Part shown: positions 4,042-59,728 of the stretch, in pieces
Layout: each line of letters starts with the position of its first letter
How positions within the stretch are numbered: the stretch's first letter is position 1
NCBI GenBank assembly: GCA_964016885.1
Contig: OZ024755.1
Span: forward strand, 16,182,001-16,246,000
Origin: Eledone cirrhosa
Taxonomy: Eukaryota
Length of the DNA stretch: 64,000 nt
Direction: 5' to 3'
The notes under the pieces: model-generated
Database searches by the model: none
Seen by the model: only the letters and a program-made list of their open reading frames with translations
What the model was told of the DNA's origin: nothing
Made by a program: the position numbers and the translations under genes

Positions 4042-4207
4042 GAAAAGAGTCAGGACCCCGACGGCTGAGCTCCGGCCGTTTCGACAGCTAGAAACGGCCG
4101 GAGCTCAGCCGTCGGGGTCCTGACTCTTTTCCTATTGCCCACTCTACTACCCTAAGTATCGAGTACTCTGGTGTGTTATAGTCCACCTGGTTCCTTACCA
4201 CACTTTG
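4042..4207 (+). mobile_element. Family F fold-back element (half-hammerhead hairpin plus unique tail) in (TA)n
   Basis: 41-bp perfect arms 4042-4082 and 4091-4131, then a tail shared with copies at 41.9, 54.0 and 59.5 kb. Confidence 0.85.
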
Positions 4208-4692
4208 TATATATATATATATATATATATAGTGGTAAGAACCTCTCAGGAGAGCTGGACAACAGAGGGTCTTCGGGGAAGAAACCCACCACCACCACCA
4301 AGCAAGTGTTTCGGCCCTTAATATTATCCATATATAATTTTGGATAATATCTCAAAAGCATTTGTTCAGCAAGATTCTTCTCTTTTTTCATTGGTCAAGA
4401 ACACTCGTTGGAAAGCTGACCTCTACAACGGTTGATGAATGAATTTTATTTTCATCTCAAACAACTGCAAACATTTCTTTTTTTCTTTTTACTGCTTCAC
4501 CAATATCCCTTGTGTTACAACATGTGAGTGTCGAGTGTACACAATACCAGAAATATTCTTTTTCTGTTTATCCCGAAGGCAGTCCAGCCTACGAATGACA
4601 TTGAATATGTTTTAACAGAGACGTCATTCCACATAAGAAGCTATGGTATTCGTAGTTCTTAACAACATATTTGCCAGCTGTTTAACACTTGT

Positions 4693-5082
4693 TTAATTGT
4701 TTCTACTTTTGGCACAAGGACAGCAAGTATCCCAGTGTATAACTGGTACGTTATTTTATCGATCCCGTAAGGATGAAAGGCAAAGTTAACCTCGGCGGGC
4801 TTTGAACTCAAATCATAAAGGGCCGTAACTCTATATGCTGCGAAGCATGGCGTCCGACCTTCTACCGCCCTGCCAATCCACCGCCCACACATGTTTAATT
4901 AATTGTGTCTACTTTTTGGCACAAGACCAGCAATTACACCAATGCGTGACTGGTACTTTATTTTATCGACCCCGTAAGGATGAAAGGCAAAGTTAACCTC
5001 GGCGGGATTTTAACTCGGATCATAAAGGGCCGTAACTATGCTACAAAGCATGGCGTCCGACCTTCTACCGATACTGCCAATT
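4693..5082 (-). mobile_element. Two tandem Meta-like SINE copies
   Basis: Reverse-complement matches to the family (ttttatcgaccccgtaaggatgaaaggcaaagttaacctcggcggg) occur twice. Confidence 0.85.
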
Positions 5083-5279
5083 CTGGTGACCTCAGCCTCT
5101 GAAAAATTAGTCATCGCTCCCTGATGCACCTCATTTACATCAGAAGATACTGTTGTGATTGGGTTTAAGAGATCAGCAAAGTATTCTCTCCACCTCACAA
5201 GGTTGCCCCTCTCTGAAGAAAGAATTCCAGACACATTCCCGATAGCAGACATGGAATGTCTTCCATTAATATCTGACAC
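5083..5279 (-). pseudogene. RTE LINE ORF2 fragment (endonuclease-RT linker)
   Basis: Translation contains RWREYFADLLNP...FSEAEVTR, typical of RTE-clade ORF2 linkers. Confidence 0.7.
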
Positions 5280-5289
5280 AAAGGCGGTA

Positions 5290-5815
5290 GACTACCAGAA
5301 TCGGTAAAGCGTTCCTTATGGGGTGATAAAATATAGTAGCAGTAATGTACTGAGAGACGATTTAATCGAATTTCCCCTCCCCCAAAATTGTTGGTCTTGT
5401 GCCTAAATTAAGAAAATCATTATTAGATATAATTTAAAGGGATGGTAGAAATGTCAGTAATCGCTAGAGCGCCGAACAACATGCTTTGTGACATAAAGTT
5501 CCGTCCCTTTACGTTCTGAGTTCCAATCCTGCTGATGAAAGTATTTCCTTTATCCCTACAGGTTCGATAAAATAAAGTACCAGTAACGCACTGGGGTCGA
5601 TTTAATCGATTTTCCCCTGCCCCCAAAAATTGTTGGCCTTGTCTCTAAATCAGAACCCAAAGGGACAGTCAGTTGGCAGTATCGGCAGAGCGTCGGACAA
5701 TATTCTTTGCAGCTTATAGTTACCGCCCATTACATTCTGAGTTCAAATCCCGCCATGGGCAACTTTGCCTCACATCCTTTCGTGGGGGATAAAATAAAGT
5801 ACCAGGAATTACTAG
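5290..5815 (+). mobile_element. Three tandem, diverged Meta-like SINE copies
   Basis: Repeated A-box/B-box heads and gataaaataaagtaccag cores. Confidence 0.75.
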
Positions 5816-5996
5816 ACTAAGAAGAAGTTGTTAATGATGGTTTGTTGTTATATTTTTTAGTTATAACGTTTCTTCATTAGCGTTCTGAGTTCGTATTTTA
5901 AGCAATTAAGTTATAAATTAATTTTAAAATTAATTAATTCTTCCTAAGACTTTGGATAGTAAAATGTCCATATATAAAGTCATACTTTTCATAAGA

Positions 5997-56350: not shown

Positions 56351-56742
56351 TATTGGTAAACGGAATAGAAAATGCTGACAAATTGTTCACAGTTGAAAAA
56401 TGGTTTAATTAGGAATAAAAGAGTATTAGTGATTGTATGGGTTAGTATTCAGTTGTGGTTTTAAGTTTTTACCGGTTGCGCATTTCTAAATGCTTTTCAA
56501 AAATAATTTTGAGATAGAGTGTCCGGACACTATCTCAAAATTATTTTTGAAAAGCATTTAGAAATGCGCAACCGGTAAAAACTTAAAAACTTAAAACCAC
56601 AACTGAATACTAACCCATACAATCACTAATACTCTTTTATTCCTAATTAAACCATTTTTCAACTGTGAACAATTTGTCAGCATTTTCTATTCCGTTTACC
56701 AATATATAATAACTTGTGTGTTACACCTCTATTCTTTTAACT
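56351..56742. repeat. About 355-bp near-perfect palindrome plus short tail between (TA)n tracts
   Basis: Centre gtgtccggacac at 56519-56530; arms differ visibly only by a 2-nt and an 8-nt indel. Confidence 0.92.
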
Positions 56743-56834
56743 ATATATATATATATATATATATATATATATATATATATAGAACTCACAACCTCTAACC
56801 TAAAACGATAACTTATCCCATATATATATATATA

Positions 56835-56918
56835 TACTGGGTGTCCCCCAAAATATTTATACGCCCTTTAACAGCATTATAATAAAAGTGTGTATACATT
56901 TTTGGGGGACACCCTGTA
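56835..56918. mobile_element. Tiny Tc1/mariner-type MITE
   Basis: TA-ctgggtgtcccccaaaa ... ttttgggggacaccctg-TA. Confidence 0.78.
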
Positions 56919-58369
56919 TATGTATATATATGTATAGACCATTAACGACTGACCGAATCGTAGAGGCGCTGTCGTGACATACGGTATGTCTTGTGCATTT
57001 TAAGCATGCCAGAGCTAATCCCCTTTCCAGGTCTCATCACAGCCGAGAGAGAAAGGAAGAATCCGCCCCCCAGTATTGTAATGGTATATTTTTTAACGAC
57101 CTCGAAAGGATAAAAAACAAAGTTGACCTCGGCGGGATTAAAGTACTGGGGTCGTACATTATTGGACAAATTTGATAATTGTTTTTAAAAATAAATGCTC
57201 TGACGCTATAGTATGTTTGTGCAGGTGAAATGTATTTTGGCCCTTTAGAAGTTACGGCTCGAACCACTTACTTGAGATGGGATGGGGGGGGGGGGGGGGC
57301 TTCTTCTCTGACCCCTTCTGCTGTCGAGCTCTGCTGAAAGTTTCTTACCATTGTTTGTGAAATAGCCTTTTCATGAGTTATATGTTCAAATCTGCTTAAT
57401 ATTTCCGTGTATTTCTTGCCAGAACATTGCAATACAATAGCTTCCAGAATTAGGAATCAGATTATTTGGGGATGTTATGTGAGAAAGAAAGACAAGCGAC
57501 CTATCCAAGAGAACATTTGCCACATCACGTTTCAGGCCATGGAAGCCAGTGTTAAACACCAGCTCTAAGAAACCCCACGTGAACTTCCGTTCGTACTTAC
57601 GAACTCAGATATGTTTTTCTCGTTCCAAATACCGTGGGCGATAACGAGGCTGGGATCAGCTACTCCTCTCCTTCCAGTTTAGAGTAGTGGTGGTGGTGGT
57701 AGTAGTAGTAGGAGTAAGAAGAGACAAAAAAAATTTATTTAATGAAAACTCTGAGAATTCCGTGATCTTCTCATTTACCATTTCTTCTTCTTCTTCTTCT
57801 CTCATTAGCCTCTCTGTTATTTATCGTCCTCCTCCATTTGTCTGTCTGTCTTCTTATCTTCTGTCCTCTCTACCTGAAACTAGATAAGTAGTAGAGGAAG
57901 ATAACGAGATGGAAGATGGTAAAAGTAAAAAGATTCTCATATACAGGCATATTAAAATGTTCTGACTCAGTAGTTATCTCTCTCTCTCTCTCTCTCTCTC
58001 TCTCTCGCTTTTGCTCTCGGACTTTCTCTCTTTCTTTCTCTCTCCCTCTATTTCTCTTCCTCCCTTAATTCCACTTTTGCTCTCTTACCCCCCCCCTCTC
58101 TCTCTCTCACACACAGACATACACACCTAGCTCTCTAGCTCCCTCACACCTTCTCACGGTCTCTCTGTTTCTCTCTCACACCTTTTAGCTCTCTCTCTCT
58201 CATCCCATCTCTCTGTTCAACTCTATATTTGGTGATTGTGGTGGGAGAGACGAGAGGCTTTTTTTGTTTATGTTTGTGTGTGTATATATATGTGTGTGTG
58301 TGTGTGTGTGTGTGTGTGTGTGTGTGTGTGTGTGTGTGTGTGTTGAATTTCCGTCGTCTCCGACGGCGA

Positions 58370-58655
58370 GCATTCTCGTCGTTTGGTCAACGGAAAAAAG
58401 ACTGCTCGTCAAACTAACATGCAAGTGGCTGAGCAATACCCTGCCATGTGTATCCTTATTTCGTTCTCAGGGAGATTCTGCATAACACAGTGTATGACTA
58501 GCCCGACTCATGGGATTGCAGGCACAGCACATTTTTACCTGCTGAGTAGGCCGGAACGATGTGAGATAAAGCGTCTTGTTAAAGGACACAATTTGGCTCG
58601 AACTCACGACATTGCGATCGTGAGTCAAACTCCCTAACCACTAAGCCACACAGGA
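58370..58655 (-). mobile_element. CORE-like SINE family copy
   Basis: Minus strand tgtggcttagtggttagggagtttgactcacgatcgcaatgtcgtgagttcgagcc...ttgtgtcctttaacaagacgc. Confidence 0.72.
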
Positions 58656-59539
58656 GTCGCGAGTAAGGTGAGCAACACATCTATTTATCTTCTGTCTCGT
58701 TATCAAAAACTACTTGTTGTCAAACAACAACACATCCTCTAACTTAACAACACATCAATAAGAACAATACAACAATAGATCAACAACAACAACAAGATAT
58801 GCGACAAACAACACGTAAGGCGGCAACAGCAGCAACAACATAACAATAACAACAAACATATAACAACAAAAAGACATGACAAACAACAATAACGCAACAA
58901 CAAAAACAGCAACAACAATAATGGCAACAGTTTAATAAAAAATGGGAGTAACAAGACAACAATAACAACACATACAGCAACAATAACAACAATAACAAAA
59001 GTCTACAAACAATCAATCAACAAACAGCAATATCCGGATGAAGAAGAAAACAAGAATTTTAAAAAAATAACAATTTTTTTTTTTAACGAAAAGTTTTTTT
59101 AATGTTTAAAAAAATACACGAAAATAAAATAAAAATCCCTGGAAATAAAGAAAAACCAACAACAAAATGAAATAAAACAGAAATAGGAGAAAATTGAAAG
59201 CCAAGGACATACTGTGTGGTTAAGGAGTTCGTTGTAACCATAAGGTTCTAGGTTCAATCTCAGAGATAGGTCGTTAATGAGTTCATTGTTTTACGATCGT
59301 TTCAGAGAGTCGATTGATTGTGGAAGATCGATGTATTGACTAGCATGGTAGTGGGTTACGTTATTACCTATTTCTAGTCTGGAAATTCTTGTTTGATCGA
59401 CCATCTTCTTTAGAAACACACACACACACACACACTCTCTCTCTCCCTCTCTCTCTCTCTCTATATATATATATATATATATATATATATATATGTGTGT
59501 GTGTGTGTGTGTGTGTGTGTGTGTGTGTGTGTGTATAAC

Positions 59540-59728
59540 AAACAAAGTGTGGTAAGAAACCAGGTGAAACATAACGCACCAGAGTACTCGATACTTAGGG
59601 TGGGTAATAGGAAAAGAGTCAGGGCCATGACGGCTGTGCTCCGGCCTTTCAACATCTAGATCCGAACGCTCAGATTTAGCTGTCGAAACGGCCAGAGCTC
59701 AGCCGTCGAGGTCCTGACTCCTTCCCTA
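59540..59728 (-). mobile_element. Family F fold-back element, more diverged
   Basis: Same tail and hairpin; tagctgtc-GAAA-cggccagagctcagccg-TC-gaggtcc on the right arm. Confidence 0.8.

Follow-up and report, generated by a model that had tools for sequence, protein, structure and literature searches.

The pseudo-long terminal repeats (pseudo-LTRs) of Penelope elements have a known anatomy: an inverted, 5'-truncated copy, joined head to head with a palindromic join and bearing a tail at one end (PMC3846280, PMC8557442, PMC2377424). How Penelope-like elements (PLEs) form their inverted ends and tails, and what role the ribozyme plays, are stated as open questions (PMC8557442, PMC11167929). The Hydra clade of PLEs is distinguished by RWK and DKT motifs, a CxCX5C linker, CxxC and CxH motifs, the lack of a CCHH motif, and insertion into (TA)n (PMC8557442). 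Here we analyze a Hydra-like PLE family found in a 64,000-nucleotide stretch of the Eledone cirrhosa genome (contig OZ024755.1, positions 16,182,001 to 16,246,000; this whole stretch is referred to as the window). Its short copies share the Penelope anatomy, and most of them are truncated in a 12-nt hotspot inside the distal part of stem II of the element's own hammerhead ribozyme. The anatomy of an inverted copy plus a tail was already known; the literature consulted, which left out most subscription papers and Repbase/Dfam, yielded neither a truncation hotspot in a PLE ribozyme nor twin priming of a PLE.

Positions are counted from the predicted cleavage site, with 0 as the first G of GGGGTC; GAAA starts at -23, and the 3' strand of stem II consists of a proximal part (-24 to -34) and a distal part (-35 to -46), the latter being the hotspot. 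Breakpoints were read from the first 100 matches to the tail, on one chromosome, of which 99 were recovered; a duplicate view of one insertion and a tandem array of tail fragments were dropped, and the remaining 97 were curated by hand because automatic calls over-extended through stem II self-complementarity or TA runs. The tail-bearing arm ends at -35 to -46 in 61 of the 97, at -24 to -34 in 5, further downstream in 22, and at -58 in 1, and it reads through in 8. This corresponds to a hazard of 0.136 per nt in the hotspot versus 0.001-0.006 elsewhere (ratio 28, p = 3e-47), in agreement with a first-pass annotation of the window, which had proposed that breakpoints cluster in stem II and are not uniformly distributed. 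A nearby inverted arm makes short palindromes of 76 of the 97; its outer end lies at +17 to +22 in 67 of the 76, and its inner stop at -35 to -47 in 55. The family thus has two fixed 3' ends, +20 for the tail-less arm and +97 for the tail-bearing arm. Exceptions to the rule of one tail per palindrome are L101/L102, L156, and L278, with a tail on both arms, and the second copy in the window, with none.

The two arms are symmetric in length. Among the 76 short palindromes the tail-bearing arm is the longer in 29, the tail-less arm in 31, and neither in 16, and where the difference is at least 10 nt the tail-bearing arm is longer in 5 and the tail-less arm in 14. Long pairs, judged by eye, comprise one arm of each kind in 19 of 20 cases (L212, an inverted duplication with two tail-less arms, was excluded from this count), and of these 19, 10 have a centre that is part of the tail-bearing arm and 8 have one that is part of the tail-less arm, which is then the longer by up to 2.7 kb; 1 is unclear. 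Arms ending in GGACT followed by at least 7 A number 777; by hand count, 43 of 100 listed are of the tail type and 57 tail-less, although the template has a run of three T in 32 of 35 complete copies. L226, a tail-less arm standing alone, carries A12, and repeated, apparently re-copied, units occur in L232, L238, and L008. The subfamily flank is identical in both arms of 34 of 47 palindromes and differs once in another 11, against a chance expectation of 0.15. These data fit two cDNAs copied from one RNA or one source locus.

The window itself holds five copies, lying in (TA)n and carrying GAAAC, stem III, GTC, and GGGGTC. They are present as the first-pass annotation had described them, as five half-hammerheads in TA-rich DNA without CTGATGA (0 of 5), four of them with a unique tail, which measures about 77 nt where 80 bp had been given. 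Their arms are as follows.

4040..4091, minus strand: tail-less arm of copy 1, +20 to -32, subfamily B
4091..4208, plus strand: tail-bearing arm of copy 1, -23 to about +95, with the tail from about 4134
4113/4114, plus strand: predicted cleavage junction of copy 1, in the tail-bearing arm
8220..8278, minus strand: tail-less arm of copy 2, +18 to -41, subfamily A
8279..8312, plus strand: second tail-less arm of copy 2, starting at -40, with stem III and the cleavage site deleted
41891..42014, minus strand: tail-bearing arm of copy 3, to -24, subfamily B
42011..42064, plus strand: tail-less arm of copy 3, -39 to about +15, overlapping the other arm by 4 nt
53982..54102, minus strand: tail-bearing arm of copy 4, to -23, subfamily A
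54102..54161, plus strand: tail-less arm of copy 4, -38 to +20
59537..59667, minus strand: tail-bearing arm of copy 5, to -40, subfamily B, diverged
59668..59728, plus strand: tail-less arm of copy 5, -40 to +20, with a blunt join

Each copy is a palindrome with its own centre, the arms of copies 1 to 5 ending at -23/-32, -40/-41, -24/-39, -23/-38, and -40/-40, respectively. The earlier claim of an inversion in or next to stem II with variable loops therefore stands as regards the differing centres, but the tail-bearing arm reaches no further than -23/-24 in copies 1, 3, and 4, whose stem II strand is found in the other arm only. The 3' hammerhead half attributed to every copy is generally present, except that an internal deletion removed stem III and the cleavage site from one arm of copy 2, which has no tail on either arm. 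The subfamilies differ in stem II sequence (copies 1, 3, and 5 belong to B, copies 2 and 4 to A), and the tail-bearing arm of copy 4 is 95% identical to a full unit. No hammerhead was among the best 150 of 441 Rfam matches in the window, the rows listed being microsatellite-driven microRNA matches, and a general repeat search of the window was dominated by microsatellites.

That the five copies are not due to chance follows from their abundance in the 3.0-Gb host genome, which contains 35,145 exact matches to a 21-mer of the tail and 12,010 exact short palindromes, compared with 0 for each reversed-pattern control. Among the 30 best matches to copy 1, the 5' half of the ribozyme was found in 3 and an inverted arm, by a loose test, in 23. 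This 5' half lies in cis and reads ACCCC-YUGANAA-G, with at least 246 exact matches for subfamily B and 4,898 for A. Its core is U3-A8 (UUGANAA), the N7 position holding all four bases, and an unpaired C3-A8 core occurs in 32 of 100 listed A copies (hand count). The master copy predicted earlier, with ggacccc-CTGAnGA upstream, thus exists as far as a 5' half in cis is concerned, but with a U3-A8 or C3-A8 core: the canonical CTGANGA master pattern tried has 0 matches, and CTGATGA searches fail because of the U3-A8 core. When 19 complete copies are laid on a type I fold, 94% of cells are paired (27-51% in slid controls), and in stem II three pairs have both partners changed, mainly at the split between subfamilies A and B. 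Three helices surround the core, N7 is free, and positions 3 and 8 are paired except in one subfamily, so that the half-hammerhead recognized at first is half of a type I hammerhead. Stem II is long (about 50 nt); its distal helix, spanning roughly -60 to -39, is present, by eye, in all subfamilies, TTAGT(C/T) being common to A and B; stem III is full (5-7 bp), and +20 falls near the end of an extended stem I. The whole ribozyme occurs in cis in thousands of copies and is not split, and the suggestion of a split ribozyme completed in trans is therefore not needed. A very abundant ribozyme family has in this way been invisible to CUGANGA searches. In addition, the 12,000 or more near-perfect hairpins made by one element could be substrates as double-stranded RNA; octopus is described as having high double-strand potential and editing (PMC5625713), to which these palindromes may be tied.

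The tail continues directly into a 5' untranslated region (UTR) and an open reading frame (ORF), with ATG at about +190, that is, about 190 nt behind the cleavage site (40 ORF-start loci, six of them from two duplicated arrays); +20 and +97 are therefore internal sites. Long head-to-head pairs hold pieces of the ORF in their centres. Locus L207 contains a 710-amino-acid open stretch with DIESYY, YRDD, and VIY...YIG, in which RWR lies at 27, DKT at 109, CNCPDRSIC at 564, CNLC at 662, and CKH at 690; it has 403 homologues at 35-52% identity, and a Pfam scan of it returned 0 families. By eye, the endonuclease has no CCHH: only a single Cys lies between VIY and YIG, and CxxC occurs just once in the 710 residues. 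A single ORF thus combines a PLE-type reverse transcriptase (RT) with a C-terminal GIY-YIG endonuclease, as in endonuclease-positive PLEs. Units of ribozyme, tail, and ATG repeat in tandem every 3.5-3.6 kb at L295 and L297-L299, as pseudo-LTRs do, and the inverted 5'-truncated copy with a tail at one end is likewise that of PLEs, although the tail is 77 nt and not 30-40 nt long. The element is a PLE, as had been surmised, and the linked RT/GIY-YIG ORF that the first-pass annotation recommended seeking is found in full 3.5-kb units together with the 5' half. Insertion into (TA)n is that of the Hydra clade, and the N-terminus and RT motifs appear, by eye, to resemble those of Hydra-1_Obim. We file the element as Hydra-like only, because its U3-A8 or C3-A8 core and its 3.5-3.6-kb unit depart from the canonical hammerhead and the length generally below 3 kb that are usual in that clade.

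Several other assignments were rejected. A non-LTR retrozyme, with tandem complete ribozymes (preprint 10.64898/2026.07.22.740005), does not fit a family whose short copies lie head to head with half ribozymes. The region upstream of the ribozyme as the start of an antisense ORF was dropped for want of tblastx support, and the L028/L079 ORF was dropped as parent, being 43% identical to the L207 ORF and joined at its 5' end to another ribozyme family. Loci L061-L086 include at least two further ORF lineages of Hydra-like type, with 40-43% identity to the L207 ORF; one of them has a 3' region that is mostly TA/TG microsatellite. At L112 (G000:C1:5867881), the family's 3' ribozyme half is fused, in the sense orientation, to a 3' UTR from a different Hydra-like lineage (as in L085), possibly a template switch between families. 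Multi-unit arrays of tandem and inverted full elements occur twice on one chromosome, at L295-L296 (G000:C14:25.09-25.11 Mb) and at C14:25.39-25.40 Mb.

What stops the arms in distal stem II can be narrowed by exclusion. Helix strength does not set the stop, since in four copies stem III (-6.5 to -10.9 kcal/mol) is read through and the weaker distal helix (-0.7 to -7.0 kcal/mol) is where copying stops; neither stem III nor proximal stem II raises the rate of stops above the baseline. Nor does cDNA length, since the two arms stop together after about 61 and 138 nt. The stop depends on context: of the 40 ORF-start loci, 31 extend into stem II of the upstream ribozyme (7 others fall short of that ribozyme and 2 end at 0), and only 1 of the 31 stops in the hotspot of this identical hairpin, versus 61 of 70 near the priming sites (p = 1e-16). 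Stop or read-through is decided for each insertion, since partner arms behave alike: in 7 of the 8 read-through tail arms the partner reaches the core (that of the eighth is seen only from -260 to -98), and of the other 89, 76 have a short partner, ending at or after -47, and 13 have none identified. The words TCAGT, TTAGT, and TCATT at -41 to -46 resemble the initiator consensus. An internal promoter has been described in PLE pseudo-LTRs (PMC2377424). The sole ORF-bearing copy with its 5' end in the hotspot (-40), L285 (G000:C2:345987900-345989000), is joined to a short inverted tail-less arm.

The best explanation as a whole, to which we would give about an even chance, is that the short copies are twin-primed head-to-head insertions off a short RNA that starts in distal stem II. 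The element's endonuclease would cut both strands of the (TA)n target, and each cut end would prime reverse transcription at an internal site, +20 or +97. Both cDNAs would then run off the 5' end of a short template beginning at -41 to -46, and the two cDNA ends would be joined head to head; long insertions would come from longer read-through or circular templates, and a minor class from RNA already self-cleaved at 0. A short RNA with such a 5' end would lead to run-off with added bases, which RTs typically produce at template ends. In L1 twin priming, each of two target ends primes a cDNA, and a short overlap joins the two into an inversion; the L1 pieces are consecutive, whereas the arms here cover the same stretch, which implies that the template was copied twice or that two RNAs were used, and we infer that both arms come from one source RNA or locus. 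Judged by the sequence patterns, twin priming is the firmer part of this proposal and is probable; whether copying is limited by the 5' end of the RNA, for example a transcription start, and not by a protein block is finely balanced. A number of observations weigh against the proposal. Transcripts from about -45 predict many full-length copies starting there, yet only 1 of 31 does (L285), so that long copies need a second class of template or efficient strand transfer. The edge is fuzzy, most arms being templated past A-41 to -44/-45 and a few reaching -47 to -58. The base after GGACT is A in 68, C in 15, G in 14, and T in 3 of 100 listed arms (hand count, several of the C being otherwise explained), with G in only 1 of 15 solo arms, so the signature expected of a cap is blurred. 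Only some A subfamilies have a TATA-like stretch, 29-31 nt upstream of A-41, and stem II pairing also constrains its sequence. The arm symmetry could be mimicked if perfect fold-back palindromes later lost their centres by deletion, later changes of A/T runs could bear on the added A runs, and the 13 of 89 short tail arms without an identified partner fit poorly. Finally, the 97 hand-curated copies represent just the first 22 Mb of one chromosome, and the ORF link is established in subfamily A, with B connected through the common ribozyme and tail.

The alternatives differ mainly in what ends the cDNAs. Twin priming could be limited by a putative protein boundary, the element's protein gripping the top of stem II so that RT stalls and re-copies, much as telomerase RT stalls at its template boundary. 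This would account for a block confined to the primer-proximal ribozyme copy (61 of 70 versus 1 of 31), for both arms stopping at one template position after 61 and 138 nt, for the A runs and repeated units at the stop, and for the distal helix and TTAGT(C/T) kept across subfamilies; yet added bases are also typical of template-end run-off, and aborting about 87% of proximal reads would be a high price for an autonomous element, so that we consider it somewhat unlikely. The anole protein is described as needing RNA near its ribozyme and as helping cleavage (PMC11167929), which favours such a boundary. A more tentative, and rather doubtful, reading is of the strong-stop kind: transcription would start inside the ribozyme, leaving a disabled half as the 5' copy, while the 3' copy cleaves and sets the RNA 3' end; RT would prime near the 5' end, run off after 60 or 140 nt, and have to jump to the 3' repeat (-45 to -1) as in retroviruses. 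If so, the 12,000 or more palindromes would be failed jumps, and the pseudo-LTRs and tandem arrays successful ones.

The mechanism of the first-pass annotation, in which a tail-primed cDNA stalls at the stem II hairpin, folds back, and self-primes to +20, with deletions varying the centre, gains something from the short overlaps at many joins, the near-perfect palindromes (16 of 76), the variants shared between arms, and centres with an A run followed by a T run, and self-priming has been proposed before for PLE palindromes (PMC3846280). It predicts, however, a tail-bearing arm that is never the shorter, yet 31 of 76 short palindromes (14 versus 5 where the arms differ by at least 10 nt) and 8 of 19 long pairs have the longer arm on the tail-less side. 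It is also contradicted by tail-less arms that stand alone and carry A runs, by the passage of the stronger stem III where the weaker distal helix stops RT, and by the upstream hairpin that stops only 1 of 31 copies; we regard plain fold-back as improbable. A founder effect, in which a few short palindromic copies became sources and their joins were inherited, would explain why some joins recur and why one flank type, TTACTTACTC, was observed only among short copies (3 of 47), but one join is found in different subfamilies (listed copies 46, 63, and 83), joins are highly varied among 50 listed palindromes, and the hotspot exists in both A and B, each main flank type having its own full-ribozyme copies. 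This makes inheritance of the joins slightly less credible again. The first-pass annotation had also allowed for a miniature inverted-repeat transposable element with fixed ends; such an element, or a split ribozyme completed in trans, could appeal to the fixed +20 end, the resemblance to small palindromes, and the short copies without a 5' half, but with variable centres, a one-sided tail, a sequence that runs on into an RT/GIY-YIG ORF of the parent, and a whole ribozyme in cis, we hold either to be extremely improbable.

Some insertions also bear a trace of ribozyme cleavage. Tail arms ending between +20 and -23 do so at -1 to +1 in 6 of 19 cases (p = 0.001). In a separate listing of 54 loci, 22 joined to a partner arm were left out, as the search pattern favours short ones; of the 32 remaining, TA-joined arms, 15 end exactly at 0 within a range of 15 positions (p = 4e-10), and under a stricter rule 9 of 26 do (p = 3e-5, hand count). 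This suggests that some templates had already been cleaved, self-cleavage being predicted after GUC. Alternatively, RT may have paused at the junction of the helices or at the G run.

Other hammerhead-like motifs lie near the five copies in the window. Copy 4 is nested in the TA centre of another inverted repeat (53932-54205, arms about 30 bp). Adjoining copy 5, positions 59762-59965 hold the head-to-head palindrome of another family, with two complete canonical CUGAAGA ribozyme motifs (59827, minus strand; 59839, plus strand) and a join just upstream of the ribozyme core, outside stem II. Five related motifs that end in TA repeats (8590, minus strand; 9043, 17929, 22591, and 53649, plus strand) have CTGA[TCG]GA, a 6-7-bp stem II, and GAAAGAAC, and probably represent further PLE families; those at 8590 and 9043 lie head to head around the right flank of copy 2. 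Other CTGATGA...GAAA motifs, at 9825 (minus strand), 9901, 12257, 10297 (minus strand), and 46768 (minus strand), belong to at least three families, that at 10297 matching the ribozyme family that adjoins the L073/L074 ORF lineage.

Among described elements, Hydra-1_Obim shares with the present one a C-terminal GIY-YIG, RW(K/R), DKT, the CxCX5C linker, CxxC, CxH, and the (TA)n target, but it is a different family, 2,507 bp long compared with a unit of about 3.5-3.6 kb, and has a canonical CUGAAGA ribozyme where ours has a U3-A8 core and long stems II and III (PMC8557442); the ribozyme and tail motifs of our family have 0 matches in the available part of that paper's supplement. The U3-A8 hammerhead of Schistosoma PLEs shows the same core covariation and was likewise missed by canonical descriptors, although it is among the minimal motifs, unlike the full 5-7-bp stem III and the stem II of about 50 nt found here (PMC4209133). 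In Poseidon PAc of Anolis, likewise, RT starts in vitro at two internal sites that bound the tail, and it extends both strands of the target after they are cut; the target is AT-rich, the RNA used is mostly uncleaved, and a dimer is predicted (PMC11167929). Its tail is 30-40 nt and its ORF starts inside the ribozyme, in contrast to about 77 nt and an ORF about 190 nt past the cleavage site; the available portion of PMC11167929 describes no cDNA stop inside the ribozyme, where we find a hotspot, and no RNA ends at the cleavage site, where a minor class of our insertions ends. The present family departs from known Penelope anatomy in its truncation within 12 nt of the ribozyme and in arms that are symmetric in length, both of which argue against the plain self-priming proposed in PMC3846280. 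What it adds to these systems is a population-scale footprint, with two start sites, symmetric arms, a base-resolved stop, and insertions ending at the ribozyme cut, at exact positions (+20, +97, 0, and -41 to -46). Two primed transcripts that both end at the template limit would likely explain the inverted ends of such elements.

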